This document shows positions 10,744 through 36,254 of a stretch of 37,680 nt of DNA, in pieces (the stretch's first letter is position 1; each line of letters starts with the position of its first letter). The notes under the pieces are model-generated. The model searched no databases. It worked only from the letters and a program-made list of their open reading frames with translations, and had not been told where the DNA came from. The DNA comes from a virus (Duplodnaviria > Caudoviricetes), in the IMG/VR virus record IMGVR_UViG_3300030330_004683, positions 1 through 37,680 of that record; one strand, 5' to 3'. A program made the position numbers and the translations under genes.

Positions 10744-11837
10744 TGCATAAATATTTTTTTACAACTAAAGATGCCTTTATTAGTAGTGGTTCAAATCAAA
10801 CTACAGGCGAAGATTTTAAAGACAAGAACACAGGACAAGATGAAATTCTTGAGTTAAAGAAAGTTTTTTTTGACAGAACATTTTCTCATCCAACTCGTGT
10901 TCTTCTTCAATTTGATACGAATGAAATAGAAAATTATATTAGTTCATCTGTATTACCTAGTGATTATAAAGTCAATCTAAGATTATATGAAACAGAAGGT
11001 ACAAGTGGATTAACTGAAGAATATAAAGTAGCTGCGTATCCATTATCACAAGAATGGGATGAAGGTGTTGGTAAAGAAATAGACAATCCAAAAACAACAG
11101 ATGGTTGTAGTTGGAAGTTTAGAAAAAACAGAGAAGGTGCTTCTGAAATAAGTTGGACAACTCCTGGTGGAACATATATTGCGGGTGATGAAGTAAGTCA
11201 ATCTTTTTCATCAGAATCACCTGATATCAATATGGATATAACCACCATAGCTAATAAGTGGTTTGGTGGAACAAATACAAATTATGGATTATTAATTAGA
11301 TTATCTGGTAGTAGAGAAACATCAAGTGGTAGTTTTGAAGACATTAAATTTTTCTCAAGACAAACTAATACGATATATTCCCCTAAGATAGAATTAAAGT
11401 GGGATGATCATTTACCAGCAACTGGTTCAAATACAGGTAGTTTAAATGAATTAGACATTAGTGGTGGTGTTGAAAATTATTTATATCCAATACATTTTAA
11501 AGAAGCATATAAAGAAAACGAAACCGTTAAGTTTAGATTTGGTGCTCGTAAACGATACATACAAAAATCATTTACAACTTCAGTTCAAACTGTGAGTGGT
11601 AGTTTTATACCACATGGTTCAGGTTCTTATTCTATCATAGATATGGCAACAAACGAATCCGTTGTTCCATTTAGTGCTTACACAACAATGAGTTGTGATA
11701 CGACTTCTAATTATTTTAAACAAGACCTAAATGCTTTTGAACCTAATCGTGCTTATAAGATTTTGATTAAGGTCAATCATAATGATGGTCAGGAGATAAT
11801 CTACGATAACGATTTTGAATTTATATTGAGGACTTAG
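10743..11837 (+). CDS. Virion structural protein with DNRLRE/CBM96-like beta-sandwich
   Basis: KDAFI..NTGQDEILEL..RVLLQFD..LRLY..WDEG..SW..GG..DIT..W..NYGLL..FFSR..PKIELKW pattern. Confidence 0.6.
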   Translation: MHKYFFTTKDAFISSGSNQTTGEDFKDKNTGQDEILELKKVFFDRTFSHPTRVLLQFDTNEIENYISSSVLPSDYKVNLRLYETEGTSGLTEEYKVAAYPLSQEWDEGVGKEIDNPKTTDGCSWKFRKNREGASEISWTTPGGTYIAGDEVSQSFSSESPDINMDITTIANKWFGGTNTNYGLLIRLSGSRETSSGSFEDIKFFSRQTNTIYSPKIELKWDDHLPATGSNTGSLNELDISGGVENYLYPIHFKEAYKENETVKFRFGARKRYIQKSFTTSVQTVSGSFIPHGSGSYSIIDMATNESVVPFSAYTTMSCDTTSNYFKQDLNAFEPNRAYKILIKVNHNDGQEIIYDNDFEFILRT

Positions 11838-11838
11838 A

Positions 11839-13740: not shown

Positions 13741-13742
13741 AT

Positions 13743-14357
13743 ATGAGTAAGACAATTCAATTTACAGATAACTCTTCCAACGCTTCTACATGGCTTTGGG
13801 AATTTGGAGATGGTAATACATCTACACAACAAAATCCAGTACATACTTTTGAAACATTTGGGAGTTACATGGTTCGCTTAACAATAACTGATGGTATGGG
13901 AAACTCGGATGAGACACATCAGTTTATTCAAATAACTGATACAAGTGATTCTGTAGATGATTTAGATTCAAACCTACCTCCTGATCCTCCTGAACTAGAC
14001 GAAGAACAAGAAGAACAACAAGAGGAACAACAAGAAGAACAACAAACTTATTCAGAACCAATGCCATCAAGTCCACCTACTGGATACAATCCTCAAATGG
14101 GTATGTTTCAAACTGATGCTTTAAGTCCTGAAGGTCAATGGATATGGAGTGGATTTGGTTGGGTTGAGAATGGTAACTATGTTCTACCTGAAACTACCAC
14201 AGATGATGAAACTGATAATAACAATACCGAAGAAAGCGAAGATACAAGTGAAAACACTGGTGACGATAACGAAGACACTGGCGGTGATGATGGATATGGA
14301 GATGGTGATGGTGATGGTGATACGGGTGGTGGAAGACCTGGTGATATACAACCCTAA
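13743..14357 (+). CDS. PKD-domain protein with acidic low-complexity tail
   Basis: IQFTDNS..WLWEFGDGNTSTQQNPVHTF..GSYMVRLTIT..GNSD canonical PKD. Confidence 0.85.
   Translation: MSKTIQFTDNSSNASTWLWEFGDGNTSTQQNPVHTFETFGSYMVRLTITDGMGNSDETHQFIQITDTSDSVDDLDSNLPPDPPELDEEQEEQQEEQQEEQQTYSEPMPSSPPTGYNPQMGMFQTDALSPEGQWIWSGFGWVENGNYVLPETTTDDETDNNNTEESEDTSENTGDDNEDTGGDDGYGDGDGDGDTGGGRPGDIQP
14001..14045 (+). repeat. In-frame GAA/CAA tandem repeat (EEQQ)
   Basis: gaagaacaa gaagaacaacaa gaggaacaacaa gaagaacaacaa. Confidence 0.8.
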
Positions 14358-16441: not shown

Positions 16442-17088
16442 TGAATAAGATACATAACGGAATCATTGATGTAGAAAAAAGAAACTCTCTTAAAGATAGT
16501 GGTTTAAATAATTTTGATTTAGGAACTACTAAAATGTATAGAGGAGTCAAACCAATGTTTGAGCAGTTAGGTTTCACAAGTCCAAACTTTAACAATCCAA
16601 GTCAACAAGTTTATTGGAATAATATAATACCAACAGACTTTGATTATTTTAACTTATCTGGTATAGAAGTACAACAAGTAGAAACAGATGGAGATGTCGG
16701 AGTAACAGAAGGTGCTAAAGTATCAAGAGAATCTTTTAGAAAGATAGTTATAGATGAAGATGTAGAACAGATTTGGGATAACGGACATTATTATCCTGTC
16801 CTACCAAAGATAGATGTGTTTGGTCAGTTTGAAGATGAAGTTGACGTAACTTTATATGGTGGAGAAAATCCACCAGTAACAAACTTAGATGAAACCGATG
16901 ATGATTTAATACTTCATTTAGATTTAGGTGATTCCAATACAGATAATATAATAGATAAAACAGATGTGAATAAGATAGATTACAATCAAGATTTTGAACT
17001 AAAGTTAGATGATGATTTAAGATTATTTAAATCAACTATTGATGTACCAGATCCAATAGAGAAAAATAATTTGGAGCAACCATTCTAA
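16441..17088 (+). CDS. Structural protein, paralog of the C-terminus of the next gene
   Basis: DLGTTKMYRGVKPMFEQLG vs NLGQTRMFNKPKDIYDFIG. Ends EQPF vs RQAF. Confidence 0.6.
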   Translation: MNKIHNGIIDVEKRNSLKDSGLNNFDLGTTKMYRGVKPMFEQLGFTSPNFNNPSQQVYWNNIIPTDFDYFNLSGIEVQQVETDGDVGVTEGAKVSRESFRKIVIDEDVEQIWDNGHYYPVLPKIDVFGQFEDEVDVTLYGGENPPVTNLDETDDDLILHLDLGDSNTDNIIDKTDVNKIDYNQDFELKLDDDLRLFKSTIDVPDPIEKNNLEQPF

Positions 17089-19709
17089 TGTCATACGATA
17101 AAAAAAATAATTACCCAAGTGTAAAAACGCCAGGTATTTATCCTGATGAAGATGATAGGAAATTAGGTTTAGATACCGATGACTTAAACGAGCTTTCTCT
17201 TGGAAATTGGAACTCTATTTTTAAAGGTAATAAACTATTTCTATCAGGTGACTTATTAGAAAGTATTAAAACTCGTAGTGGTATTGAAGTAAAGTTTAGA
17301 ACTTCTCCACCAAGAGAAGGAACAAGAGTTCTTGTTTGGAGATATCAAAGGAACACCGAAAGCACAGCTTACACTAATGCTATTTTAAAAGCTCAAGGTC
17401 CTATTATTGAATATCTTAGTGAAGTGGAAGATATAACAGACCATGGTAATAGAGATACTGAGGCTGTGAAAAAAAGTAGACTGATTAGAACAAGAGCTGT
17501 TTATGACCAATTTTATGGTGCTACTCTCCCAAATCCATCAATATCAGCTTTAGATGTGCAATCTACTAGTTTATTTAACGCTGGTGCTGGTTTGTATGAT
17601 AGAAATGGTGATACAATTTCAATACGACCTCAGTCAAATCACGAAGAGTCATTTACTGATAAAGCTATCACATTTGAAGATGGTAGAGCTATCATACAAG
17701 AAAGAGAAGGTGGTGATATTGTATTAACTTTAGATGAGAATACGAGAGATAAGTTAGAACAATATCATGTTTTTGAACGAGAACTAACCACTACCGAAAA
17801 AATTAATTGGGGTGATGGTAGACCTGAAAGAGGAAATGATAAAGACTTTACACATGAGCTTATAGCCATGGTTGATTTTGATATACAAGCTTTAACGATA
17901 GCTTCTGATACGTTAGAAGAGTTTGAAAGTCAATCTTGGGATTTTCTAAAACCTAATGATGAGGATACTACCGGTAACTTAACTCAAGAATATATGAATA
18001 ACTATCCACAATCTAATGCTGGTTTTATAACCTTAAGGGGATTAGAAAAAAATCTTTTTGATGGTCCTGATAAAACTAGTATTAATCATCCTTTTAGTCC
18101 AACAACAGTAACAGGAACACAAGGAGAAGATTTATATAATAACCATCCACCAGAAGGTGACTTTGCTTTTGAAGATGGTGATTACAATGGTGGGTTTGGT
18201 TACTATCATTCTGAAGCTGATTTTGGTGTGAATATAGGTGCTGTAAAATGGGTGCCATTTTATAGAACTGATGTAAAGCTAGGAGCAGATTTTTGGCCAC
18301 AAGAACTTAGATTTAACACAGAACAAACTTTAGAAATGGGTAACTATAATTTATTACCACAAGAATCTGAACAAACTTCGGATGAACCTGTTAGAGAAAG
18401 TTTAGATTCAAATATAGTTGATGCTTGGGATGACCATTTTTCTTTTATTGGGTATCCTGATTTTAAGTTTAGTATTGGAATAGACGATTCTGAATATGTA
18501 GAAACTTTAGATACATTTGATACACCTGTAGATTTTGTTGTTAATGTAAAAACAGATAACGGTAATGATTTATTATATTATGACTCAAATGAGTTACCAT
18601 ATCAAGATACTTCTTATCCTATAAAAGTAAATCTTGATGTAGATTTGTATTACGACTATGGTTTTGAAAACGAAAGACAAACACTAGATCAACAAGAAGT
18701 TATCGCTGCTTTTTCTGGCGATGGCGAATCACTTAGAGATTATTTAAGAGATATAATAAGAGTGCCTTACTATGCTCAAAATCCAAAAGAGTGTTATTAC
18801 AAATATCAAGTAATACAATGGGGAGATGAAAAAAGATTATTAACTGATGAACAAATAGAAAGTTCTTACTTTTTTAGTTTTTATGATTCTGAAGATTATC
18901 CTAAACCAGAAGATTATTTTTATAAAAAATATCAACAATCTCAAGACATAGAAGCAATACCTATACAAAGAGAAGGAGCAAGAGTTGATGGTCAATATAA
19001 CGGAGTACCAAATATTACTAATCATGTGTATAACACGCCTGGTATAAAAAAGATAAAAATAATCGTATATCGTTATACGCCAGATGCTGCTTTTATTTTA
19101 CAAACTTATCTGATAACAAAAAATATTGTTGTTGGTGATGGTGTATTAAAGTCACAAGATTTTTCTGTATTTGGTGGTGGTGATTTTAACTACATCCCTA
19201 TTACAGATAATCAAGCAATAATAGGTGGTGTTGATGATGATTCTAAATATAATAACTCTGTAGAAAAATTAGTTAAAGAAGATTTGTTTTTAAAAGAAGA
19301 TTATTTAGATAGAACATCTGCTAGAGATTATATAGATAAATTTAATAGTGGTCTTTTAGGAGAATCACCAAGTCAGTTAAACTTAGGTCAAACAAGAATG
19401 TTCAATAAACCTAAAGACATTTATGATTTCATTGGTGGTAACAGATTAGAGTGGATAAGTGAAGGTTCTGGTAGTTTACCACTCAATAGTTTGGCTACCG
19501 ACATATTTATAAATAATGACGATTGTATAGTTGATTTAAACCCGTCTAACTCTGATTACTCAGTTTTGAATAACCAAGTTGGATTATCTGGCGTAGGAAT
19601 ATTAGTTGGAGATTATGAACTAAGTCAGCCAGAAGGTGGAAGTGTAACTAAACAAGGAATAATGGAAATACCTGATTTAGATAATACAAACGATAGACAA
19701 GCATTTTAA
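17088..19709 (+). CDS. Large acidic virion structural protein with PKD-like domain
   Basis: IQWGD...NHVYNTPGIKKIK. TAATG-coupled within baseplate operon. Confidence 0.6.
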   Translation: MSYDKKNNYPSVKTPGIYPDEDDRKLGLDTDDLNELSLGNWNSIFKGNKLFLSGDLLESIKTRSGIEVKFRTSPPREGTRVLVWRYQRNTESTAYTNAILKAQGPIIEYLSEVEDITDHGNRDTEAVKKSRLIRTRAVYDQFYGATLPNPSISALDVQSTSLFNAGAGLYDRNGDTISIRPQSNHEESFTDKAITFEDGRAIIQEREGGDIVLTLDENTRDKLEQYHVFERELTTTEKINWGDGRPERGNDKDFTHELIAMVDFDIQALTIASDTLEEFESQSWDFLKPNDEDTTGNLTQEYMNNYPQSNAGFITLRGLEKNLFDGPDKTSINHPFSPTTVTGTQGEDLYNNHPPEGDFAFEDGDYNGGFGYYHSEADFGVNIGAVKWVPFYRTDVKLGADFWPQELRFNTEQTLEMGNYNLLPQESEQTSDEPVRESLDSNIVDAWDDHFSFIGYPDFKFSIGIDDSEYVETLDTFDTPVDFVVNVKTDNGNDLLYYDSNELPYQDTSYPIKVNLDVDLYYDYGFENERQTLDQQEVIAAFSGDGESLRDYLRDIIRVPYYAQNPKECYYKYQVIQWGDEKRLLTDEQIESSYFFSFYDSEDYPKPEDYFYKKYQQSQDIEAIPIQREGARVDGQYNGVPNITNHVYNTPGIKKIKIIVYRYTPDAAFILQTYLITKNIVVGDGVLKSQDFSVFGGGDFNYIPITDNQAIIGGVDDDSKYNNSVEKLVKEDLFLKEDYLDRTSARDYIDKFNSGLLGESPSQLNLGQTRMFNKPKDIYDFIGGNRLEWISEGSGSLPLNSLATDIFINNDDCIVDLNPSNSDYSVLNNQVGLSGVGILVGDYELSQPEGGSVTKQGIMEIPDLDNTNDRQAF

Positions 19710-22700
19710 TGGAAATATTACAACCATATAACAACACTACTTTACAATTGATATCAGATGAATCACAATATCAATTTAATTCTAACGATTTAATAGATGG
19801 TATAATAAAACTATCTGTATTTTCTGATGTTGGTTCTTATTTAGATGGCGAAGACTTACAACAAGATATTGATTTCTATGTAAAGAACGATGACTTATTT
19901 ATTAAACCAAATGAATATTTAGATAGAAATGGTTTTGCTGAAGGTAATTATAATGTTCAGTATGATTTCTTAAAAAGATTAGATACAAGTAATTTTCACA
20001 TAGCTGAAATATCTCCAAGTAGAAAAGAGGTGAGGTTAAATATAGTTAGTTCTGAAATAGACGATGATACTCAAGATATCATTGTTAATTTTATGCAAGG
20101 TGAAAATGATAACTATCAGTTTAACTCTCACTTAGAAATATCACAAGGTCGTTTAATACCAATCAATGGATTTGCTTTTGATAATGTTACAGGTAACAAA
20201 AGAACTTTAATAATAAAACTAAACGAAGCATTACCATCTAATGTAGTTGTTCTATCAACTGATTTTAACATATCAAACAAATTTTTATCATCACAAACAG
20301 AAACAATATTTTTTATTGACAGAGAAGGTCTTGCTGTAAGTGGTTTAGGTTTAGAAATAGATCAAGGATATTTAACAACACCTACAGCAATAGATGATTC
20401 TTATTCTAACTATAATTCTATAACATCTTCTGTTAGTGAAAATTTAGTAGAAGAAATTACTCGTCAACAAAAAGACCTTAATTTAAATATAGATTATGAA
20501 ACATTTAGTGGTCATGTATTTTTTGGTTCAGCAAAATCTAAACTTCAAGGGTTTAAAAATAAAGCTGTCAAATTAGAAGGTTTATATTCTGATTTAAGTT
20601 CATCACTTGCATTTTCAAGTAGTTTAAAAATAGTAGAAAGAAGAAAACATTTATTTAAAGAAATAAGAAAAGTAGAAGATGAGTTTACTCATTATGAACA
20701 TTTTATGTATAATGATGGTCAAACGTATTCTACATCTTCTGCACCTGGTGTTAGTAATAATTTAGCTGGAACAAAATATACAAATTTAGTAGATAATGAT
20801 TTTACTACATTACAAGACCATGAAGGTTTTGATAGAGTTTATAAAAAAACAGAAAACGGAACTATACATCTATTTACAGATGTTTACAATGTAGAGCAAC
20901 CACCTTTTTATAGTTCAGATGATAATTTTTACTTATCTTTTATTTTACGAGGTGCTGGAACAGTTAGTGAATATGATTTAAACTTTGCTTCAGGAGGTTT
21001 TGCTAACGAGAGATATGATAAATCAGGTGGAGGCGAAGTTGGAAACTATGGCTACTTTAACGATAGGCAAATACCATTTAATGCTTGGAGTGGTTCAATA
21101 TTAGCTAATCCAGAAACAACAGGTTCTAATTATCAAAGATATATATTTAAAGCAAAACAACATTTTTTTAGACCTGTTAAGAGTGGTAATTTTGCTTTAA
21201 TAAATGGTCTTGAAGATTATAGTAGCACCTCTACATCTTGGGAAATATTATCTGGTTCAAATCCAATATCTGCTTCTACAAGTGGTTCTATAGGTGATGG
21301 GTTTGCTTATGGTTTCTTTGATTTAACTGGTGTTTATAATCCTTTTGTTTTTCCAAATCAAATTCAAGATGATGGTACATTAGGAATGGATGATTTTGTT
21401 ACAGGTTCGATATTACCACAAGGTGATTTATTTCCATTATTTACTGGAGCACAAGGTAGTAAAGAAGCATTTTTTACAGATGTAGTTGTATCAAAAAATA
21501 ATCCAACTAACATACATCCTTTCTCAAAGATTTATAGACCACCAAGTGGAAGTTATGCTGGTTCATCGGAATGGAATAGTTGGTATAATACAATGGAAAC
21601 CATTGCCGAAGATTATGATAATGATAATATCCATTCTCTTGTAAATAACTTACCAGAGTTTTTAAGAACTGGTAACGAACATAAAGTTCTTCGTGATTTT
21701 GTAAACATGTTGGGCGAACAATTTGATTTACTAAGAAGTTATATTGACAACTACCACAACATTTATAAACTTGGATATAAGAATCCAAATGCTATGCCAG
21801 ATAATCTTTTACCTGTTATTGGAAAATCACTTGGATTTGATTTAAGAAACCCTCTTTCAGGTAGTTTAGATGATTACTTAGAATCAACTCGTGGAGATGA
21901 GGTTGGAGATAAAAAAGCTATCGGTGCTCTTTGGACAAAAATATTAAACAACTTAGTTTATATTTACAAAACAAGAGGAACTCAAGAGGGGATAAATACT
22001 ATATTGAGTTTATATGGATACGATCCTACTTCATTTACATTAACTGAATATGGTGGTTCAAGAGAAGAACATAATCCAAGTGTTGTAACTAATAATGCTG
22101 CTAATGATTTAGATAATGGACTAAAAAATGTAACAGGTAATGTTTCTTTTAAAGAAAAAACTGAAAAATTTAACACAATGAATTTTTCTAAAAAAGAAAA
22201 TAAGTTAGCATTAGATTGGTATTCGAATGATGCTGAACCTAATGGTGTTGAATTTGTAATGAAAACTACAAAAACTAATAATGAACAAAAAGTTTTAAGG
22301 TCAAGTGGCTCAAATGGAACGGGAGATAATTGGGATGTTAGGATAGTACCATCTGCTTCTTCTGATACTGTTGGTAAAGTAGAGTTTAGATTAAATAGTA
22401 GTGTTGGTTCTGCTGGTGCTATAGGTAATAATGCTGTTACAATGTCTACTGATTATATTGACAATATAAATGATAATAAGTTTTTTAATATCATGTTACA
22501 AAAAGATATAGTCACACAATCAACTGAATTAACTCAATCTTATAGTTTATTTGTTGGTAGACAAGATGGTGATGCTTTAAAAGATGTTCAGCATATATCT
22601 ATGTCAACAGCTAATGTAAATGCTAACAAAAACTTTATGACAGCATCAGGTCAAACAAGTAGTAACTTTATAGTCGGCGATGAGATGACAGGTTCTATAG

Positions 22701-24316
22701 GTGAGGTTAGAGCTTGGGATAGTGTCATAAGTATGTCAAAATTTAAACAACACATTTTAAATTATAAGAGTGTTGTTGGTGGAACAGCAACTGCTCCAAG
22801 AGATAACTTGGTCTATCATTTTCCATTGGATGAAGGTAAAAATGCTACAACTATAAAAGATATTTCTTCACCAAATAAAGTTAAAAATTTTAATAAACCA
22901 TTATCTTCACAACCAAATTTAAGTGCAGTAACGAGTAGTGTTTCTACTGTTAAGAATTTTTCTTTTCAAGTCAGAGGAACTGATGCTATAAAAAGTGATA
23001 GACAATATTACATAGGTTCTGGTATGAGATACTTAGGTGAGTTAAGTCCTGATACAAGAACTATAGGATTACCTTATAATCCACAAGAAAATCAAGAGAT
23101 AATAAATAAGATAGGTAAGTCATATTCTTATGTAGATGCAATTGATGCTATTGTAATAAATGCTATGTCTGATTTTGTATTAGATGATTATATAGATGAT
23201 TATGATAATAATGGTATTTACGATGACCTATTAACATTAAGAAAACAACTTATTGAAGAAAGACTTATTTCAACGGATGTTGTAAAAAACTTATCTTCTG
23301 TAGAATCAAGAGTAGATAATCCTGAGTTTATTGCTTCTTTAGAAGAAAATTTAGCAGCTAGAACAAAGTTAGAATTTTCTTATGAAGTTAAGAATGATAC
23401 TTTATTTAGGTCAAGAATTAAAAGAGCTTCTTTACAAACACAACTAAATCCAAATCAAGCGATAGGTTCGGCTAGTTTGTTAGAGCCATCAGTTAGTATA
23501 AACTTCAACGAAAATAAACACGAAAAATCTATTGATGTTCTTACAGACGAGGTGAGTATAAGTGGATTATTAAATCAAAACAAATATGAAAAGTCTATTG
23601 ATGTTCTTACAGATGAAGTAACTATAACATCTACTGTTAATGATAAAGTTCATACAAATGAATCTGCTCCATTAGATATTATTAATTTATCAGATTCATC
23701 AAATCAAACTGTTCTTACTTTAAAACCAAGCAACTTTACTGATTTGTTATTAGGTTCTAAAAATGAGTTTTATAAGAATCATGGAAAGAGTGAAGAACAA
23801 ACTTTCTTTAAATCAAGTAATCAAGGTGCTAATGGTGATTACAATACATACAAATATGAAAGTAGATTTTTCTTTAGAGCCATAGGAGATATAGAAGAAT
23901 TTTTTCCAACAAGTGGTTCATATAAAAATAGAACTGGTACAAATGCTAAACAACCTTTTAATCATCATGATAACTTTAGGCATTTTGGAAATCGTTATTA
24001 TGTAGATAGTGGAAGTGGATATACCTATTCATCTTTTTTTGGTAGTGATGATGCTACTGTAGATGGTAGGATGGTAGGTAGAACACTTTTCTTTAAAACA
24101 GATTCGGATGGAAATATCACATATCCAATTAATCATTTCTTTAAAGTAGGAACAAGTAAAGATGGTTTAACAAATTTAATTTACAAAGGAACACAGAATG
24201 ATGGTACTAATCCACCACAATTTGATCCTGAATTAGATGTTTCACCTACAATTCCAGCATATGTGATTAATGTGGGTGGTTCGGATACTGATAAGAAGTT
24301 AAAAGTAATAAGGTAA
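19709..24316 (+). CDS. Large baseplate wedge protein (gp7/tail protein I-like segment plus LamG)
   Basis: LVNNLPEFL..FVNMLGEQFD..IYKTRGT.EGI..ILSLYG wedge motif. MTGSIGEVRAWD..NLVYHFPLDEG LamG motif. Confidence 0.65.
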   Translation: MEILQPYNNTTLQLISDESQYQFNSNDLIDGIIKLSVFSDVGSYLDGEDLQQDIDFYVKNDDLFIKPNEYLDRNGFAEGNYNVQYDFLKRLDTSNFHIAEISPSRKEVRLNIVSSEIDDDTQDIIVNFMQGENDNYQFNSHLEISQGRLIPINGFAFDNVTGNKRTLIIKLNEALPSNVVVLSTDFNISNKFLSSQTETIFFIDREGLAVSGLGLEIDQGYLTTPTAIDDSYSNYNSITSSVSENLVEEITRQQKDLNLNIDYETFSGHVFFGSAKSKLQGFKNKAVKLEGLYSDLSSSLAFSSSLKIVERRKHLFKEIRKVEDEFTHYEHFMYNDGQTYSTSSAPGVSNNLAGTKYTNLVDNDFTTLQDHEGFDRVYKKTENGTIHLFTDVYNVEQPPFYSSDDNFYLSFILRGAGTVSEYDLNFASGGFANERYDKSGGGEVGNYGYFNDRQIPFNAWSGSILANPETTGSNYQRYIFKAKQHFFRPVKSGNFALINGLEDYSSTSTSWEILSGSNPISASTSGSIGDGFAYGFFDLTGVYNPFVFPNQIQDDGTLGMDDFVTGSILPQGDLFPLFTGAQGSKEAFFTDVVVSKNNPTNIHPFSKIYRPPSGSYAGSSEWNSWYNTMETIAEDYDNDNIHSLVNNLPEFLRTGNEHKVLRDFVNMLGEQFDLLRSYIDNYHNIYKLGYKNPNAMPDNLLPVIGKSLGFDLRNPLSGSLDDYLESTRGDEVGDKKAIGALWTKILNNLVYIYKTRGTQEGINTILSLYGYDPTSFTLTEYGGSREEHNPSVVTNNAANDLDNGLKNVTGNVSFKEKTEKFNTMNFSKKENKLALDWYSNDAEPNGVEFVMKTTKTNNEQKVLRSSGSNGTGDNWDVRIVPSASSDTVGKVEFRLNSSVGSAGAIGNNAVTMSTDYIDNINDNKFFNIMLQKDIVTQSTELTQSYSLFVGRQDGDALKDVQHISMSTANVNANKNFMTASGQTSSNFIVGDEMTGSIGEVRAWDSVISMSKFKQHILNYKSVVGGTATAPRDNLVYHFPLDEGKNATTIKDISSPNKVKNFNKPLSSQPNLSAVTSSVSTVKNFSFQVRGTDAIKSDRQYYIGSGMRYLGELSPDTRTIGLPYNPQENQEIINKIGKSYSYVDAIDAIVINAMSDFVLDDYIDDYDNNGIYDDLLTLRKQLIEERLISTDVVKNLSSVESRVDNPEFIASLEENLAARTKLEFSYEVKNDTLFRSRIKRASLQTQLNPNQAIGSASLLEPSVSINFNENKHEKSIDVLTDEVSISGLLNQNKYEKSIDVLTDEVTITSTVNDKVHTNESAPLDIINLSDSSNQTVLTLKPSNFTDLLLGSKNEFYKNHGKSEEQTFFKSSNQGANGDYNTYKYESRFFFRAIGDIEEFFPTSGSYKNRTGTNAKQPFNHHDNFRHFGNRYYVDSGSGYTYSSFFGSDDATVDGRMVGRTLFFKTDSDGNITYPINHFFKVGTSKDGLTNLIYKGTQNDGTNPPQFDPELDVSPTIPAYVINVGGSDTDKKLKVIR
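23507..23625 (+). repeat. 66-nt-period (22 aa) internal duplication
   Basis: NENKHEKSIDVLTDEVSI / NQNKYEKSIDVLTDEVTI. TCTATTGATGTTCTTACAGA at 23528 and 23594. Confidence 0.85.
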
Positions 24317-27798: not shown

Positions 27799-29097
27799 AT
27801 GTTAAAGAAGTTATTAGTAGGGTTGTTATTAACATCTTCTGTATTAGCTGAAAACGAAATATGGAAGTTTTTAAAATATTCTACAGCATATGGTAGTTTT
27901 AGTTTAAATGCACCACGATATCAAGATGATAGATTTGCTATTGTAGGTGGATTATCTACTGGTGTTCTTGAGGTCGAGAGAACCGAAAGAGAACTAAAAC
28001 CTGATTTTCAAACTTCTTTTGGACTTCGTAAGATAGGTCGTTTTCAATATGAACCAAAAAGAGGTGTTAAGTCAGCTGGTAAGGGTGGAACTTGGTACGA
28101 TGGTTCAGAACAGAACTCTAACGAAAGTGCTACATTCGGACCTGTTAAAGGTTGGGAGTATCTAATCAAATGGTCAGAAGGTAGACAATGGGGTAATGAT
28201 TACGAAAACCAAGAGTTTTGGTTAAGATACATCGGTGAATATCTAATGGCTAAGATTGGTTGGACAGAGTTAGGTCTTGAAGATATTAGTTATGGACAAG
28301 GTGATATCAGAATACATCTTACACCTGAAGCACTTGGAAACAAACTACACTTTTCTGTGGGTGTTAAACACAGACAACATCCTGTATACGGATTCGATGC
28401 TATGATTCTTGATACCACTTGGTATAAGGGGCAGTGGTGGAACTTTGCTGAAGATGCTTTTGGTATCGATGATAACCAATGGTTTGATCCGACAATGCAG
28501 AATCCTGATACATCGACAGGATGGCATAGTCAACAATTATATGAGATAGATCCTGTTACTGGTCAACTTAGACCAATAGAAGGTGATGGACCTTTTTGGA
28601 ATGGTAGAGGTGAGTATTGGGGACATGATTGGTTGTGGAGAGATGCTAGTGGAAAGATATTTGCTTACACAGACAGAGAGTATTTTATCTACCACTTCCC
28701 ACGAGAGTTAGAAAGATACATTGGTGGTAAGAAAAAAGACTTAGGATATCAGAGTGAAACATCTTTGGTATTAGGTATTGATTTTTATCACTACGATGAG
28801 AATTGGTGGATACATACATGGGGTAATTGGTTACCCATACATTATGGACACACCGACCATGCTTATCATAACGCTGCTCATTATCAAACTCATTTAGAGG
28901 AAGGTAAAGAAGCTAGTGATTTTATGTTCATGGAGCCGATGTGGCATGATTGGAATGACTATGACTTTGGTGCTATCTTTGGTGTAAAGATAAAAGATAA
29001 CTTAGGTGTATTTACTGAGGGTAGATACTTATATTATTGGGAACGACCAGCATACGACATTAAGTTTGGTATGAACTATCAGTTTGTAGGTTGGTAA
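27799..29097 (+). CDS. Secreted protein, predicted outer-membrane beta-barrel
   Basis: Sec signal MLKKLLVGLLLTSSVLA. Aromatic-rich amphipathic strands (DFGAIFGVKI, LGVFTEGRYL). Terminal YDIKFGMNYQF beta-signal-like strand. Confidence 0.65.
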   Translation: MLKKLLVGLLLTSSVLAENEIWKFLKYSTAYGSFSLNAPRYQDDRFAIVGGLSTGVLEVERTERELKPDFQTSFGLRKIGRFQYEPKRGVKSAGKGGTWYDGSEQNSNESATFGPVKGWEYLIKWSEGRQWGNDYENQEFWLRYIGEYLMAKIGWTELGLEDISYGQGDIRIHLTPEALGNKLHFSVGVKHRQHPVYGFDAMILDTTWYKGQWWNFAEDAFGIDDNQWFDPTMQNPDTSTGWHSQQLYEIDPVTGQLRPIEGDGPFWNGRGEYWGHDWLWRDASGKIFAYTDREYFIYHFPRELERYIGGKKKDLGYQSETSLVLGIDFYHYDENWWIHTWGNWLPIHYGHTDHAYHNAAHYQTHLEEGKEASDFMFMEPMWHDWNDYDFGAIFGVKIKDNLGVFTEGRYLYYWERPAYDIKFGMNYQFVGW

Positions 29098-29162: not shown

Positions 29163-29729
29163 ATGAAGAGATTGTTATTATTAGTAGGATTGTTGTTTTG
29201 GAGTTGTGAAGATGACAGAACAGAAGAACCATTAGTAGAGAACATTCAGATGTGGGTTAATGGTACAGAGATTATAGCTCGTGAATACTACGAGAGTATC
29301 ACTACATACGGAGCATCTGAAGTACAAGAAGATGGTTCTGTAAAGAAGATATTCGTACTACACTTTCAGAGAGAAGATGGTAGGATTACACCTGAAAAGG
29401 AACATTACGCTTTGATTATGTATGACAATGCTGGTCAAGATAATGGACAACCAATAGATGAAAAACTATACTTAGGTGGTACACAAATGGATTCATTACT
29501 ACTACAAACTACAAGTGGTAGAATCACATTAGAGATTGTAGGTCTATCTGATTACACAGAGTTCTCACAAGCATCAATCGATAAGTATGAAGATGGTTTG
29601 GTAAGTGGTATGGCTGATGGATACTTCTTCAATCCATACAGAGACGAAATGCAACATGGTATAATAATATTTGATAACTTGGAAGTAGGAACAGATCCTG
29701 AGGCTACTTTCTATCAAGGAATATATTAG
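29163..29729 (+). CDS. Lipoprotein
   Basis: True start ATG at 29163: MKRLLLLVGLLFWS-C-EDD lipobox with acidic residues after Cys. Confidence 0.8.
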   Translation: MKRLLLLVGLLFWSCEDDRTEEPLVENIQMWVNGTEIIAREYYESITTYGASEVQEDGSVKKIFVLHFQREDGRITPEKEHYALIMYDNAGQDNGQPIDEKLYLGGTQMDSLLLQTTSGRITLEIVGLSDYTEFSQASIDKYEDGLVSGMADGYFFNPYRDEMQHGIIIFDNLEVGTDPEATFYQGIY

Positions 29730-30388
29730 TGAATGGTGATATCAAAATAGGAAAGTTACTTTGTGATGAGGACATCATTACGAAGAGACAACTAAACAAA
29801 GCCTTACAAAAACAGGTTAAGGGAGACAAACGTACTCTCGGAGAGATACTTGTTGATTTAGGTTTTTGTGATTTTGATGAGATTACCAATGCTCTTTTAA
29901 ATAATGATTCTGATACAAAGAAACATGAAGAGAAACAACAAGAGATTGTACCTGATGTCAAAGACATTCCTCCTGTTGAGCCAGAACCTATAGTAGAAGA
30001 ACCAAAGAAAGAAGAACCAATAGAACTATCTGAAGAAAAAGTTATGGGTACAAAATTTACAATGTCACTACAGACATTGGGTGCTTTAATTGCTGTGATA
30101 GCTAGTGGTATCGGTGGTTACTATATGTTACTACAAGAGATAGAAGAAGCAAAACAATTACCAGAACCACCATCTATCGAATCTATATTTGGTGATGAGT
30201 ATCCATCTAAACCTGATGGACATAACTGGCCTCGTTCATACGAACAATACAAAACACAAGTTGGTGGACTACAAAAAGATATGGATGATGTATTCGATAT
30301 CATTGATGAGTATGAAGAGAAGATTGAAGAATTAGAAAAATTAGTATCCAACCTTAGAGTAGAGGTTGCTAAGAAGAAAGATAAATAG
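29729..30388 (+). CDS. MshEN-domain (c-di-GMP-receptor-like) single-TM coiled-coil protein
   Basis: KIGKLLCDEDIITKRQLNKALQKQ and (R)TLGEILVDLGFCDFDEITNALL match the tandem RLGxxLLxxGLIxxxxLxxxLxxQ motif. Pro/Glu linker, TM, C-terminal coiled coil. Confidence 0.8.
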   Translation: MNGDIKIGKLLCDEDIITKRQLNKALQKQVKGDKRTLGEILVDLGFCDFDEITNALLNNDSDTKKHEEKQQEIVPDVKDIPPVEPEPIVEEPKKEEPIELSEEKVMGTKFTMSLQTLGALIAVIASGIGGYYMLLQEIEEAKQLPEPPSIESIFGDEYPSKPDGHNWPRSYEQYKTQVGGLQKDMDDVFDIIDEYEEKIEELEKLVSNLRVEVAKKKDK

Positions 30389-30397
30389 GAGTTATTT

Positions 30398-30772
30398 ATG
30401 AGATATTTATTGTGGTTATTTTTAATCCTTTCTGTATCACTCGGACAGATAAACGATAAGAATTTCAAAGAGAAGGTAAATGGTGGAATGGTTGTCGTAA
30501 TAGTTACTGCTGAGTGGCAAGAACAAGACTTTGATGAGGATATTCTAAAGGGTGTAAAAGGATATCAAGATTGTAAGATTATCAGAGTCAAGAGTGAAGA
30601 TGCTCCAAAGGTTGTAAAGAAACTTAGATTCAGAAACTTTCCATCATTAGCTCTATTTTACGATGGTTCTAAAAAGAAAACTTGGAAAGCTGATATGGAT
30701 GGGGAGTTAGATATTGATAATCGTGACATTAAAGGTTCTATAGATGATGTCCTAGCAGAAGATGTATTCTAA
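30398..30772 (+). CDS. Secreted thioredoxin-fold protein lacking CXXC
   Basis: Signal peptide. INDKNFKEKV..MVVVIVTAEWQEQD (WCxxC replaced), cis-Pro motif RNFPSLALFYDG. Confidence 0.75.
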   Translation: MRYLLWLFLILSVSLGQINDKNFKEKVNGGMVVVIVTAEWQEQDFDEDILKGVKGYQDCKIIRVKSEDAPKVVKKLRFRNFPSLALFYDGSKKKTWKADMDGELDIDNRDIKGSIDDVLAEDVF

Positions 30773-30792
30773 TGATACACCTTGTTTAATTT

Positions 30793-30808
30793 TGTTACAT
30801 GTGTAACA
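30793..30808. promoter_or_regulatory. Palindrome TGTTACA-TG-TGTAACA, candidate enhancer (UAS) for a sigma54 activator
   Basis: Perfect 7-bp inverted repeat that fits TGT-N10-ACA, about 100 bp upstream of the -24 box. Confidence 0.5.
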
Positions 30809-30813
30809 TTTTG

Positions 30814-30843
30814 AAAACCTCACTTTTTAGTGGGGTTTTTTTT
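30814..30843 (+). terminator. Rho-independent terminator
   Basis: AAAACCTCACT-TTTT-AGTGGGGTTTT stem followed by T run. Confidence 0.85.
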
Positions 30844-30902
30844 GCACTCCTCTAACTTCAACAATAATACAAAATAAAAAAAAATTTAAAAAAACGGGTA
30901 CT

Positions 30903-30919
30903 TTGGTACACTTCTTGTA
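30903..30919 (+). promoter_or_regulatory. sigma54 (RpoN) -24/-12 promoter
   Basis: TTGGTAC-ACTTC-TTGTA vs consensus TGGYAC-N5-TTGCW. Exact GG-N10-G spacing with C-to-T at -12. Confidence 0.65.
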
Positions 30920-30954
30920 TTATATAGGTAACAACATTAATACGGAGAACCGAA

Positions 30955-31626
30955 ATGTATAAAACAATAAAAGAAATCTTGAATAAAATATTCAAGACAC
31001 TTAAAAAAAGAAATGGAAACTCACTCGCTGAATTTGCTGTTACCACAGCTATGATGGCAACTCTTGCTACAACAGCTGCTCCACGATTTGCTAGTATTGG
31101 TGAGTCTGCTAAAGAAAAGAAGACTATGGCAAACATAGATAGAATTATAGCAGCTGCTAACAATCACTATATGGAATCATTAGAACAAGAAGGTCGTGGT
31201 AGATTTCCAGGACAAATAAAGTATAATGTTCCAGTAGGTGGTGTAGATTTAGGAGAAGGACAATTAACTGTAGATGCTTTGGAGGCATTTCAAGATAACA
31301 TTTTACCTGGTCTAACATCTGCTGACGATGATATAGGTTCATACTTTGTATATGCTTTTGCTTTATCATCTGATGACCAAGATGCTGTAGAACAAGGAAT
31401 ATTAGTATCAGGATCTAATGCTGGATATGATACAGATGCTCCTTTTGTAGCTGATGAACTTAGATTTCAGTTTTCTCGTGCTCTTGTAGATTCACCTTAC
31501 CAAGATGGTGCATATGTGATATTAGTAATACCTGGTAGTGGAACAGGAACACTTGCTGAACCACCAGCGTTAGTTGTAGCTGATATGGAGAATCCAGCTA
31601 AACTACATAAAACTTTAGTACCTTAA
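30955..31626 (+). CDS. Atypical type IV pilin/pseudopilin
   Basis: Basic leader KKRNG|NSLAEFAVTTAMMATLATTAAPRF: G-1, E+5, P+22, but Asn at +1. Confidence 0.8.
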   Translation: MYKTIKEILNKIFKTLKKRNGNSLAEFAVTTAMMATLATTAAPRFASIGESAKEKKTMANIDRIIAAANNHYMESLEQEGRGRFPGQIKYNVPVGGVDLGEGQLTVDALEAFQDNILPGLTSADDDIGSYFVYAFALSSDDQDAVEQGILVSGSNAGYDTDAPFVADELRFQFSRALVDSPYQDGAYVILVIPGSGTGTLAEPPALVVADMENPAKLHKTLVP

Positions 31627-31656
31627 TCTTAACTTCATAACATGAAAGGCAATATA

Positions 31657-32100
31657 ATGAAGAATAACAAAAACGGGTTTACCTTAATAGAACTTATTAT
31701 GGTAATGATAATATTAGGAGTATTATCTGCTGTCGCTATACCAAGATACTTAGAGACGATTGAAAATGCTGAAGAAGCAGCTGAAGATGCTGTCATAAGT
31801 AATATTGGAGTGGCTTTAGAAAACTATGCTATTCACAAGTTAGTGAAAAGTGGTAGAGGAATATGGCCAGATAATCCTTTTGATGCTCTAAAAGAAAAAC
31901 CACAATCATATACTAACGATGGAACAAACGCTGATTCTGATAACGAATGGACATTCGTAGTAGGAACACCATCTTATATCACTCATCAAAGAGCTGATAA
32001 TAAGAGATTTAAATGGGAGTATGATGCTGGAATCAACACAGGAACAGACGCTGACACTACAGGCTTTTTAGGTAGTAGAGAAAGTCTGTTAAGTGAATAA
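31657..32100 (+). CDS. Type IV pilin (MshA-like)
   Basis: MKNNKNG|FTLIELIMVMIILGVLSAVAIPRY class III signal. ATG at 31657 has SD AAAGG (alternative start 31642). Confidence 0.92.
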   Translation: MKNNKNGFTLIELIMVMIILGVLSAVAIPRYLETIENAEEAAEDAVISNIGVALENYAIHKLVKSGRGIWPDNPFDALKEKPQSYTNDGTNADSDNEWTFVVGTPSYITHQRADNKRFKWEYDAGINTGTDADTTGFLGSRESLLSE

Positions 32101-32560
32101 TAAAGGATTCACTATGATTGAGTTGATTTTGGTGATGATAATCATTGGAATACTAGCGGCTATCTCAGTACCAAGATTCACACAAATTGTCCGACAATCT
32201 GAAGCAGCATCTGAACAAGGTGTTCTCGTAAATTTAGTTGCTGCTTTAGATACTTATAGTCAAGAACAATTCATTGAGGATGGTGTATTAAGTTGGCCTG
32301 TTAATCCTTTTGATGCTCTAAACAAAGTACCACCATCATATGATAAAACTCAATCTACACTCATGAGTGAGATGGATGATAGTGATTGGATTTTTACAGG
32401 TGAAGCAAGTAATGATTATAAAAACTCAATCGTTCATCGTAGAAAAGAAGACAGTCTAGCAGTATGGACTTATAATCCAACAACGGGTGAGATTGGATAT
32501 TCTAATCCACCATACAAGCCAAATCAGATTGTGTATAGACCTGATTTACAAGGACAATAA
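32093..32560 (+). CDS. Type IV pilin
   Basis: MNNKG|FTMIELILVMIIIGILAAISVPRF. Confidence 0.92.
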   Translation: MNNKGFTMIELILVMIIIGILAAISVPRFTQIVRQSEAASEQGVLVNLVAALDTYSQEQFIEDGVLSWPVNPFDALNKVPPSYDKTQSTLMSEMDDSDWIFTGEASNDYKNSIVHRRKEDSLAVWTYNPTTGEIGYSNPPYKPNQIVYRPDLQGQ

Positions 32561-33001
32561 ATGACAACACTAAAAAAGAAACTACAAAAAGGGTTTTCTT
32601 TAGTTGAGTTAGTAATGGTTATGGTCATCTTGGGTATTTTAGCATCTGTTGCTGTACCTAAGATGACTAATGTACTTAGTCAAGCATCTGAAAGAGCAGA
32701 GAAATCAACAGTAGACCAAATGTGGGCTGGATGTGAATCTTATGCTAACGATAAACTAATAGAACAAGGAACAGAGACATGGCCGTTTAATCCTTTAACG
32801 ACATTTGGTAGAACTCGTAATACTAAAATCACACTTGATTTAGGAGTACCTGATGAAAGAAATGAATGGCAGTTTAGTCTCATAGATGCTGGAGAACCAG
32901 CAGTATTTCACATGAGAACTGATTATGAAATATATTATTATACTTATGATAGTCTTCAGTTTGAACTTGCTGAAGAGCCAGTCAGATACATCGCCCCTTG
33001 A
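32561..33001 (+). CDS. Type IV pilin
   Basis: KKKLQKG|FSLVELVMVMVILGILASVAVPKM. Confidence 0.92.
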   Translation: MTTLKKKLQKGFSLVELVMVMVILGILASVAVPKMTNVLSQASERAEKSTVDQMWAGCESYANDKLIEQGTETWPFNPLTTFGRTRNTKITLDLGVPDERNEWQFSLIDAGEPAVFHMRTDYEIYYYTYDSLQFELAEEPVRYIAP

Positions 33002-33548
33002 TATTAGACAAACATCAGAATCTAAAAGAGATGTTGTTTATGGACAAGATTGTGATGATACAGAATATCGTAATGAATGGGGAACACCTAATTGGAAAAA
33101 CTATGGTAAGTGGTTATCCGAATGTGACTCAATTCAATCAGTAACTTTAGATAAAGAGTTTGCTGAAAGGCAAAAAAAACAACAAAGAGAAAAAGCCATA
33201 CAAGATAGTATAGAAGCATTAGAATATGAAAATATAGATTTAGATGTGGATGCTATGTGGGAAAATACGGTATGGGAAGAAATTCAAGATGTTACAGATG
33301 TATATGGTGAAGTAGAACAAATCACAGCAGTTGCTGGTGTTCGTGGAGCAGAAGCTGAAGACGAAGCATTAGAACATCTTTATTATAGAAAGTCCATGAA
33401 AAAACTAGCATTAGAAGATTTACAAAAAGCTTATGGTAAGTTAAAAATCAAAAGAGACGAACTTATCAAGGTTAATCCCAATCATCCAAAACTTAAAAAG
33501 ATAGATAATCTAATATCTCAGTTAGAATATAAAATGAAAAAAGTTTAA
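32925..33548 (+). CDS. Secreted helical protein
   Basis: Signal peptide MKYIIILMIVFSLNLLKS|Q, two Cys, ITAVAGVRGAE motif. Overlaps last pilin by 77 nt. Confidence 0.65.
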   Translation: MKYIIILMIVFSLNLLKSQSDTSPLDIRQTSESKRDVVYGQDCDDTEYRNEWGTPNWKNYGKWLSECDSIQSVTLDKEFAERQKKQQREKAIQDSIEALEYENIDLDVDAMWENTVWEEIQDVTDVYGEVEQITAVAGVRGAEAEDEALEHLYYRKSMKKLALEDLQKAYGKLKIKRDELIKVNPNHPKLKKIDNLISQLEYKMKKV

Positions 33549-33571: not shown

Positions 33572-33580
33572 ATATTTATA
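33572..33580 (+). promoter_or_regulatory. Candidate phage late promoter ATATTTATA
   Basis: 6 nt before ATG at 33587, no SD. Confidence 0.6.
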
Positions 33581-33931: not shown

Positions 33932-35514
33932 TGTCTATACCTTGTGGATATAAGAAGAATACGGAAACTGTAGCACAATACAGAAAAAGGTGTGGTGGAA
34001 GACCATTGGGTATGATTATGAAAAATGTAGGTGAGAGTAAAGACGAAATTAAAGTTTTACAAAACTTTCTTACAAAACATACAAAATCTGCTAAGAAAGC
34101 CTCTTCTATGATTAAGAAATATTATAAGAAAGTCAAAAAACAATTCAAAGGAGATTCTACAAGAGATGTAGCGATGGCTATTGTAGGCTATGATGCTTTA
34201 GGAGAAAATAAAGATTTGTTCAAAATGTACACACAGGCTATGAAAATGTTGCCTGGTTCTCCTAAACAAAAAGAACTTATAAAGAAAATTAGTTCTTTAC
34301 GAAAAAAATTAAAGATGGATGAAGCTCCAAGAAAACCTCGTAAGAAAGGTCAACATAGGAACTCACCAAATCATTCAGATTTGTATACGGATGAGAATCC
34401 AAAAGGTACAATAAAAGGATTGAAGTTTGCTACTGTACAAGATGCTGAGAAATCAGTATCCAAAATAAAGAATAGTGGTAAGTCTCATGCTCATAAAATA
34501 CAGGCAGCTGTTGCTATGGAACAAAGAGCTAGAGAGATGGGTAAGTCATCTCAGGCTGCTGTGTATAGAAGATATATAAATAAGATGAAAAAGAAGACCA
34601 AAAAGAAAAACGAAGGGTGGTCTGATAAATATAAGAAAAGTATTGATTGTAATAATCCGAAAGGATTTAGTCAGAAGGCACATTGTGCTGGAAGAAAAAA
34701 AAGAGAATCGGTAATGGAACATACTTGTCACGATTGTGGTCAACCAATAGATATAAACGAAGCTGGATTTAAGTTTGTTATTAGAAACAAGAAGAAGGTA
34801 AAGAAACTTATCTGTCCACCTGGTACAAAAGCTAAAGGTAGAAAAAAGTGTGTAAGAATGACTGGCGCTGAAAGAGTTAGAAGAGCCAAAGGTTTAAAAG
34901 TAACTCGTAGAAAAGCAAAAGCTAAAATAGCAAAAACTCTACGAAAGAGGGCAAAGAGTATGAAGAAAAGACAAAGTATGATTGGAGAATCTTTAAAGTT
35001 AGAAGAGTTGGTTGGTAAACCAATTACAGAAGCTCAGTTTGATGAAGCAGCTGGTAAGAAAGATGCTTGTTATCACAAGGTCAAAGCTCGTTATGATGTA
35101 TGGCCGTCAGCTTATGCTAGTGGTGCTCTTGTAAAGTGTCGTAAAGTCGGTGCTAAGAATTGGGGTAATAAATCTAAAAAAGAAAATGTATCAGAATCAT
35201 ATGATATATGGATGGAAGATGGTTCTTGGGGATATACATTAGATGGTATTGTTGAAGCTGAATATCAAGGTAGAAAAGTAAAACTTGGAAAACCAATGCA
35301 AGGTGATTCTAAAAAGTTTAAAGTATATGTGAAGAACGACAAAGGAAATGTTGTTAAAGTTAATTTTGGACATGGTGGTTCTTCAGCAAAAGGTAAGACT
35401 ATGAGAATCCGTAAATCTAATCCTAAAGCTAGAGCTAACTTTAGGGCACGCCACAATTGTGATAATCCAGGACCAAGATGGAAAGCTCGTTATTGGAGTT
35501 GTAAAAAATGGTAA
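33931..35514 (+). CDS. Very basic multi-module phage protein
   Basis: Concatenated small modules: HSDLYTDENPKGTI.., WSDKYKKSIDCNNPKGFSQKAHC, KDACYHKVKARYDVWPSAYASG, AEYQGRKVKL..FRARHNC..YWSCKKW. Confidence 0.75.
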   Translation: MSIPCGYKKNTETVAQYRKRCGGRPLGMIMKNVGESKDEIKVLQNFLTKHTKSAKKASSMIKKYYKKVKKQFKGDSTRDVAMAIVGYDALGENKDLFKMYTQAMKMLPGSPKQKELIKKISSLRKKLKMDEAPRKPRKKGQHRNSPNHSDLYTDENPKGTIKGLKFATVQDAEKSVSKIKNSGKSHAHKIQAAVAMEQRAREMGKSSQAAVYRRYINKMKKKTKKKNEGWSDKYKKSIDCNNPKGFSQKAHCAGRKKRESVMEHTCHDCGQPIDINEAGFKFVIRNKKKVKKLICPPGTKAKGRKKCVRMTGAERVRRAKGLKVTRRKAKAKIAKTLRKRAKSMKKRQSMIGESLKLEELVGKPITEAQFDEAAGKKDACYHKVKARYDVWPSAYASGALVKCRKVGAKNWGNKSKKENVSESYDIWMEDGSWGYTLDGIVEAEYQGRKVKLGKPMQGDSKKFKVYVKNDKGNVVKVNFGHGGSSAKGKTMRIRKSNPKARANFRARHNCDNPGPRWKARYWSCKKW

Positions 35515-36254
35515 AATTAAAAGACCTATTAACAGAAGGTGTTTTAGACCAAGGCATACTCAAAGCAGTATTTCTTGCTGGAGGACCTGGTAGTGGTAAA
35601 TCATTTGTTGCTGGTGAGATATTTGGAATACCAAAGAAAGTAAATGTATCAGCTTATGGATTGAAACTTGTAAATCAAGACAAAGAATTGGTTCGTATGT
35701 TAAACAAATATGGATTTGGTACGGACTTGGATGATATGCCAGAAGAACTATTTAGACAACTTACAGATCCTGATTACGAAGATTATAGTGGATTAAGAGG
35801 TAGAGCTAAAGAACTTACCAAACAAAGACAGAAGATGTATATGGATGGTAGGTTGGGTATGATAATAGATGGTACAGGTCATAAATATCAAAAGATAGTA
35901 AAACGAAAAAAAGAATTAGAAGATATAGGTTATGATTGTTACATGGTATTCATTCATACTGATTTAGATGTAGCACAAAAAAGAAACATGGAAAGACCAA
36001 GAAAACTTAATCCTGAAATTGTAGAAACTGGATGGAATGAAGTTCAAAAAAATAAAATATACTTTCAAGGTCTTTTTGGAAATGCTAACTTTATGATGAT
36101 AGATAACTCAAATACCTTAAGTCCAAAACAGGCAACCAAAAAATTTAACATGTTGGTTAAAAAAGGTATCGGTTCTTTTATTAAAAAACCAGTTAAAAAC
36201 TACCGAGGTAAAAAATGGGTAGAAAGACAACTTATACTTAAGGGATTAAAATGA
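35508..36254 (+). CDS. P-loop kinase (zeta-toxin/AAA_33-like)
   Basis: AVFLAGGPGSGKS Walker A, LVNQD, MIIDGTG, MVFIHT..VAQKRN..R lid. Confidence 0.8.
   Translation: MVKLKDLLTEGVLDQGILKAVFLAGGPGSGKSFVAGEIFGIPKKVNVSAYGLKLVNQDKELVRMLNKYGFGTDLDDMPEELFRQLTDPDYEDYSGLRGRAKELTKQRQKMYMDGRLGMIIDGTGHKYQKIVKRKKELEDIGYDCYMVFIHTDLDVAQKRNMERPRKLNPEIVETGWNEVQKNKIYFQGLFGNANFMMIDNSNTLSPKQATKKFNMLVKKGIGSFIKKPVKNYRGKKWVERQLILKGLK

Follow-up and report, generated by a model that had tools for sequence, protein, structure and literature searches.

In a report on F10-like Pseudomonas aeruginosa prophages, a prophage-encoded FimU protein (P-FimU) is described as entering the pilus and blocking adsorption (Sztanko et al., PMC12952977). 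Table S3 of the same source places PilA-like genes (P-PilA) in Xylella prophages and in virulent phages (Aeromonas phages, Vibrio phage 033B, Synechococcus ACG-2014f and S-CAM7), and lists these genes as untested, with one accession per phage. As described in a second source, σ54 acts with PilR to drive pilA in Pseudomonas (P. aeruginosa and others; PMC6058289). The DNA analyzed here, called the window, is a whole virus record (IMG/VR record IMGVR_UViG_3300030330_004683; 37,680 bases) that contains four tandem pilin genes (P1 to P4) and one accessory gene (X) behind a predicted σ54-type control region. In our judgment it is somewhat probable that the machinery of the bacterial host builds pili with these phage subunits, and that the altered surface blocks competing phages that bind pili.

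As an earlier note on this DNA had claimed, four consecutive and co-oriented open reading frames (ORFs) with class III-type signals occupy positions 30,955-33,001. All four products have a short basic leader ending in Gly and a Glu at +5, and the +1 residue is Phe in P2 to P4 and Asn in P1. The hidden Markov model check that the note had suggested succeeded for P2 to P4, which score above the curated thresholds, with 30.4-34.8 bits for PF07963 (threshold 21.2) and 31.7-33.3 bits for TIGR02532 (threshold 16.3), but not for P1, which matches neither model. A profile of the P1 family can be aligned to that of the P2-P4 family across 63 N-terminal helix columns (E 6.7e-6), and PF07963 is found in 46% of the members of the P1 Atlas neighbors. 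Among 65 viral P1 proteins the +1 residue is Asn in 56 and Gln in 9, and host P1 homologues resemble phage P1 in having Asn at this position. In addition, Pro22 is conserved in 183 of 183 distinct viral pilins, a set for which Glu5 was a selection criterion. Judged from sequence and modeling, the phage subunits keep the features needed for co-assembly.

Structural modeling and database searches bear on the same assignment. P4 is predicted to adopt a type IV pilin fold, with a long N-terminal helix containing Pro22 and a beta-sheet head: its model, made from a 138-row alignment, has a helix at residues 3-58 plus four strands (predicted local distance difference test, pLDDT, 89.7), and its six best matches among 48,161 chains are all type IV pilins (Z 4.3-5.2; root mean square deviation 3.5-4.2; 93-112 residues). 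A Foldseek search with this model placed pilins first to fourth but returned no match at E≤0.001, and the fold search with P1, which started from a poor model (pLDDT 58), gave none at the same threshold. Among known phage sequences, P2 to P4 match PHROG 3433 over the N-terminus and P2 weakly matches Vibrio phage 033B (32.5%); for P1, a set of 50,697 phage records contained no match.

The contig is viral, as the note had asked to have confirmed, since PHROGs identified baseplate wedge subunits (8363-10743) and a late sigma factor (5111-5839) in the window, and a T4-type gp23 capsid is present in three of five related viral records. By these markers the source phage is a large T4-like myovirus; a Holliday junction resolvase was also found in the window with PHROGs, and the tail genes occupy 10,743-24,316. 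No PilB, PilC, PilD or secretin domain was detected in the 47 plus-strand ORFs to which the domain scans of the window were applied, in agreement with the claim that the pilins come without assembly machinery. Likewise, a search of the wider genome, which the note had recommended, found no PilB, PilC, PilD N-terminal domain, secretin, RpoN or tyrosine integrase over cut-off in the five related records (120-132 kb), although these are 66-72% complete, so that missing machinery is not proof of absence. Weak PF00158 matches in four of the five records were considered as a phage-encoded σ54 activator and rejected, as they represent a protein of ~390 amino acids with an AAA domain that lies beside a vWA-like gene and, in the two cases inspected, contains no GAFTGA motif; weak PF00437 matches are explained by the same ORF. 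The pair formed by the vWA-like gene and the AAA ATPase was noted in related phages at L278:46-2991 and L279:20-2575.

A query of the genome collection with the single P1 sequence gave no match; an alignment query succeeded and returned 28 loci, of which 11 are titled Marinimicrobia or Neomarinimicrobiota and 2 have other labels. In these bacterial relatives, P1 homologues lead a pilin array within a pilus operon. For example, in G006 (MED-G177; the Neomarinimicrobiota genome G008 is among the relatives compared with it) a co-oriented run begins with a response regulator, a prepilin peptidase, PilB with MshEN, a σ54 activator, PilC and an Mrr gene, continues with at least 13 pilins, a LamG protein, an AAA/PilM protein, PilO and a secretin, and ends with a CHASE2 cyclase, an FG-GAP protein, a TPR protein and, as its last gene, a homologue of X. 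P1 to P4 correspond to the main pilin array of this operon and not to a FimU-like minor tip pilin, and no head-domain match to them was found among the downstream minor-type host pilins. These relationships suggest that the likely host is a member of SAR406/Marinimicrobia (Marinisomatota). A 2.7-kb genome contig (L040) nests among phages in both trees described below, bears a neighbor gene otherwise confined to phages, and looks like a phage fragment misbinned into a host-phylum genome; this co-binning is a weak further hint at the host.

The host arrays have features of their own. Tandem pilin arrays at L056:9956-20618 and L046:9956-17626 contain 19 and 13 pilins, as counted within these loci, and long host arrays include duplicated P1 genes, each with its own σ54-type promoter, which suggests surface variation in SAR406. 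In MED-G177-type hosts, a gene for an Mrr-type restriction endonuclease lies between pilC and the first pilin (L046:8763-9773; L056:8737-9747).

The cassette is predicted to carry a host-type σ54 promoter together with enhancer-like boxes. When TGGYAY-N5-TTGY, which we take to be the σ54-type consensus, was sought in the 200 bases upstream of the P1 signal (shorter upstream regions were dropped), it was found in 52 of 61 distinct viral and 52 of 56 bacterial regions, compared with random-window backgrounds of 1.7% and 4.6%, respectively; the whole window contains just two matches, one of which is at 30,904-30,918. Of 53 viral and 49 bacterial regions, 50 and 30, respectively, have at least two boxes of the type listed in Table 1 ahead of the promoter, as against 0.8% of viral and 0.2% of bacterial shuffles, with the caveat that the box motif was picked after the sequences had been viewed. 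The boxes lie 80-180 bases upstream, with the phage peak at 100-180. RpoN is present in five of five host genomes, and the gene for the σ54 activator sits in the host pilus operon, between pilB and pilC. A σ70 scan of the window gave 17 sites, compared with 22.5 expected, and none is at the start of the cassette. The predicted terminator hairpin, which lies between the upstream operon and the promoter, was not called by a pattern-based terminator scan. It was also observed that the phage promoter variant is more uniform than that of hosts and that in many phages it forms an inverted repeat, GTACA-N5-TGTAC (30904-30920 in the window, and in viral loci), even in separately acquired P1 groups.

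The pilin module is a real, widespread and movable unit. An alignment query of the viral collection gave 143 matches, from which 80 loci were kept; P1 alone gave 2,849 protein matches, host copies included. Cassettes consist of P1 and P4, of P1-P2-P3-P4, or of a version with a different third pilin, and the P1- and P4-type genes are the pair common to the two-gene and four-gene cassettes. The other third pilin, seen at L022:11132-11575 and in the L072/L107/L110 group, looks by eye like the host gene that comes first behind the array, so the make-up of cassettes varies between phage groups. Flanking genes differ as well; for example, the cassette immediately follows the late sigma gene in L002-L004. 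With the gene at 27,799-29,097 as an independent marker of the site (45 loci), the thioredoxin-like gene that precedes the cassette was found in 27 loci, and P1 comes next in 13 of those 27. In three others (L156, L157 and L166) the thioredoxin-like gene runs directly into the homologue of the gene at 33,587, which defines an empty site; two empty sites examined by sequence are clean, with the thioredoxin-like stop codon overlapping the next start. A whole-record search of the 16 marker records of at least 40 kb (completeness 21-72%) found a pilin in 9.

These data also dispose of a chimeric junction at either edge of the module, an artifact that the earlier note had listed as a refutation. 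Contigs from independent runs cross from X to the gene that follows it, with one difference at most, and from the promoter to P1; one run, X2, may be the source sample of the window. Positions 30,772-30,812 are not spanned in one piece by the contig pieces listed, and for that side the evidence is the same adjacency in other viral contigs. A chimeric contig is ruled out by these junction-spanning contigs, by the shared adjacency in relatives and by the empty sites, and related phages carry the module at this position, carry it elsewhere, or show the empty site.

Phylogenetic analysis separates the four pilins into two kinds. In a quick tree of 108 P1 proteins, window P1 falls in a 47-row clade of 46 viral sequences plus L040 (Shimodaira-Hasegawa approximate likelihood ratio test, SH-aLRT, 100; stem 1.18), and the L041 host gene lies inside a second group of viral sequences; the starred branches of this tree require at least three changes, so capture or exchange has taken place more than once. 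In a tree of 138 short pilins, in which few columns make deep forks unsure, P2 and P3 cluster with MED-G177-type host pilins (support 97 and 99), and P4 lies in a 49-row clade of 48 viral sequences plus L040 (SH-aLRT 100). The best head-domain identity to a host protein is 38% for P1, 60% for P2, 49% for P3 and 32% for P4, and in 301 host-phylum genomes no match to the P4 head exceeds 38% identity, the L040 contig apart. P1 and P4 represent phage-specific lineages. All four pilin genes are under purifying selection, with median ratios of nonsynonymous to synonymous substitution (dN/dS) of 0.17, 0.06, 0.10 and 0.12 for P1 to P4 across nine four-gene cassettes, in some pairs of which dS is near saturation.

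Of four RNA runs, one contains five near-identical contigs that together cover 31,084-32,668, which indicates presence in the library and is not proof of transcription. Run X15 shows little coverage beyond the pilin genes, but genes cannot be ranked by contig coverage, and the high depth of this run at 30,840-31,073 stems from other P1-type sequences (host or other phages); runs X17 and X19 also contain pieces of flanking genes.

Table 1. Predicted genes and control elements of the pilin module, by position in the window.
Feature	Position	Strand	Description
Three TG(T/A)(T/A)(A/T)CA-type boxes	30773, 30793, 30802 (30773-30808)	+	Predicted enhancer sites for the host σ54 activator
Hairpin and T run	30813-30843	+	Predicted terminator of the upstream operon; -14.8 kcal/mol, z -5.3
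σ54-type -24/-12 promoter motif, GG-N10-GT	30904-30918	+	Predicted start near 30930
P1	30955-31626	+	Pilin of 223 amino acids, atypical signal G|NSLAE; phage-specific clade
P2	31642-32100	+	Type IV prepilin of 152 amino acids, G|FTLIE; of the four, nearest to host pilins
P3	32093-32560	+	Type IV prepilin of 155 amino acids, G|FTMIE; groups with MED-G177-type host array pilins
P4	32561-33001	+	Type IV prepilin of 146 amino acids, G|FSLVE; phage-specific lineage, predicted pilin fold
X	32925-33548	+	207 amino acids, not a pilin; hydrophobic N-terminus (predicted export signal)
ATATTTATA motif	33572-33580	+	Predicted phage late-type promoter restarting transcription after the module

The limits of the module differ from the interval of 30,955-33,548 given by the earlier note, which starts correctly for P1 but omits the upstream control elements with which the module begins (~30773), and which extends past the last pilin to take in a fifth ORF of another kind. 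The product of this ORF, X, has no class III signal, is 50% identical over 103 amino acids to that of the final gene of the host pilus operon, and has a homologue in five of five host genomes tested. In viral loci with enough downstream sequence, X lies within 1.5 kb after the pilins in 48 of 51 cases. Assignments of X as FabG or XopF were rejected because the NCBIfam matches are weak (E 0.002-0.07) and far under cut-offs, and an Atlas search with X returned nothing usable. In many phage cassettes X is adjoined by a protein of 141 amino acids with an N-terminal membrane segment (63 loci matched; between P4 and X at approximately L002:6331-6756), which is missing from the window and from bona fide host loci.

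The direct neighbors of the module encode an MshEN-motif membrane protein, a thioredoxin-like protein and proteins without assigned function; they are not the baseplate genes that the note had described as flanking the pilins, which are ~20 kb distant. GC content of the cassette (0.34-0.36) is the same as that of its flanks. The membrane protein (29729-30388) has an N-terminal motif of the MshEN type, which binds cyclic di-GMP (NF053729, 43.8 bits; NCBIfam cut-off 38), and its gene is kept beside the site whether the pilin module is present or not. It was considered as a module member and not counted, because it matches host PilB weakly (E 0.008) and persists in empty-site phages. Elsewhere in the window, a Popeye/cyclic nucleotide-binding domain protein is encoded at 3260-3913, and in several relatives (L016, L031, L038, L182 and L183) such a gene immediately precedes the pilin module; beside this observation stands the CHASE2 cyclase encoded in the host pilus operon. 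A kinase-like P-loop protein of the Zeta-toxin/AAA_33 family, encoded at 35508-36254, is 89% conserved in L022.

How might the phage use these genes? The observations made directly concern gene content, host homology, conservation of the promoter and boxes, the machinery search in partial genomes, presence or absence at the site, and purifying selection. Of the proposal in the earlier note that the phage feeds its own subunits into the host pilus, the viral origin, the missing machinery and the retained features for co-assembly stood up, and the remaining steps, which we infer, would run as follows. The cassette would be transcribed by the RNA polymerase of the host, acting with RpoN and with the activator whose gene lies between pilB and pilC, so that phage pilins would be made whenever the host makes its own. 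Host PilD would cleave the leaders of the phage pilins, and the conserved N-terminal helices would co-polymerize through the PilB/PilC and secretin of the host. On the shaft, the diverged P1 and P4 heads could then take the place of receptor surfaces or hide them, assembly likely being sustained by P2, P3 and X, and the benefit would be superinfection exclusion during the lytic cycle.

Several points weigh against masking by phage subunits in host-built pili. There is no evidence that these phages bind pili, and shaft pilins must exceed the existing subunits of the host within one infection, unlike the continuously made tip pilin of a prophage. The link to the host consists of homology and one co-binned contig, with no spacer and no physical link. 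Nine of the 61 viral upstream regions have no strict promoter motif, five being degenerate at -24 or -12 and four seemingly replaced; of 53 viral and 49 bacterial promoters, 51 and 16, respectively, have GT instead of the canonical GC at -12; phages nearly always have TGGTAC with TTGTA (51 of 53) and hosts mostly TGGCAC with TTGC; and an AT-rich, -10-like stretch just after the element means that another form of polymerase could contribute. In addition, P2 is 64-70% identical to host pilins over the mature protein, which fits maintenance of pili as well as masking, the heads show no sign of positive selection (dN/dS 0.07-0.22 beyond residue 60), and the structural Z scores of P4 are middling.

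The alternatives differ in what the phage would gain. It is possible, if on balance doubtful, that the phage maintains pilus function once host genes are shut off, so that infected cells remain on particles, form aggregates or import DNA, with a gain in burst size or in the reach of new hosts. Four intact pilins plus X under host-matched regulation exceed what masking needs, P4 has an MSHA pilin as its top structural match (Z 5.2, tied with other pilins), and strong purifying selection and the host-like P2 fit maintenance and masking equally well. However, the shared subunits P1 and P4 are far diverged from all sampled host pilins (32-38% head identity), a divergence that maintenance does not need and that favors masking, and the motors that would limit pilus activity were not found in the phage records. 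A more ambitious idea, which we regard as unlikely, is that a widespread group of lytic ocean phages specifies a pilus shaft of its own, from phage-evolved major subunits P1 and P4 under a captured σ54 enhancer, so that a new filament on infected SAR406 cells both excludes rivals and sticks cells to particles or fresh hosts.

Among the outcomes listed in the earlier note, namely receptor swap, jamming and altered adhesion, jamming looks least likely. It would be an improbable use of the module for its pilins to act as dominant-negative subunits or to trigger feedback repression of host pilin genes and so abolish pili. The P1 helix is weakly hydrophobic (mean hydropathy 1.19 versus 2.7-2.9) and has Asn at +1, but host P1 homologues share this N-terminus. 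The two published sources describe pilin-level feedback on pilA in Pseudomonas (PMC6058289) and propose truncated phage PilA proteins as inhibitors (PMC12952977); the phage pilins here, however, are full length with conserved heads, and a single inhibitor gene would be enough. It is more improbable still that the proteins act outside the shaft (in a secretion pseudopilus, as a membrane plug, in lysis timing or as a virion part) or form a neutral passenger module. The best NCBIfam match of the four is GspG, under its cut-off, the host operon encodes an ExeA-like AAA protein, and some relatives have no module at this site. Against this stand purifying selection on all four genes, retention of the module with its promoter across several genome positions, and the late-type ATATTTAT motif, which does not precede the pilins in the window; of its nine plus-strand matches, five have a gene start no more than 45 bases downstream.

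Host-built pili with phage subunits would extend the replacement of pilus parts by phages from one Pseudomonas prophage tip pilin to a multi-subunit, host-regulated module in abundant ocean phages, one that apparently plugs into σ54 enhancer control. The analysis gives a likely host assignment for this phage group, and suggests that pili are contested surfaces in uncultured SAR406. Were the phages to specify their own shaft, it would be a virus-programmed surface organelle affecting particle colonization in the ocean interior. The promoter, activator, peptidase and subunits are all open to laboratory test without culturing host or phage.

In a literature search that covered few subscription papers, no multi-pilin phage cassette with its own σ54 control and no Marinimicrobia phage pilin cassette was found. 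The likely source of P1 to P4, X, the promoter motif and the boxes is a Marinimicrobia type IV/MSHA-like operon such as that of G006, from which the phage keeps the end of the pilin array and the last gene; the peptidase, ATPase, platform, activator and secretin of the host were not found in the phage records. As under PilR control in Pseudomonas, a pilin gene stands behind a σ54 promoter with an enhancer-binding activator, but the Marinimicrobia activator has no Response_reg match and sits inside the operon, and a copy of the control region is here on a phage. The module shares with P-PilA the presence of major-pilin-like genes in phages, including large virulent marine ones (PHROG 3433), and differs from it in sequence families and in a captured regulatory region, which is not described for P-PilA. 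With P-FimU it has in common a phage pilus subunit without its own machinery, a dependence (predicted here) on host peptidase and assembly, and a divergent head on a conserved helix. P-FimU, however, is one minor tip pilin of a prophage with a predicted -35/-10 promoter, whereas here four main-array pilins and X follow a σ54-type promoter and boxes in a large T4-like phage whose relatives' partial records yielded no integrase. The module resembles the P-FimU idea but falls outside it, being not FimU-like and having four subunits, an accessory gene and predicted σ54 control.

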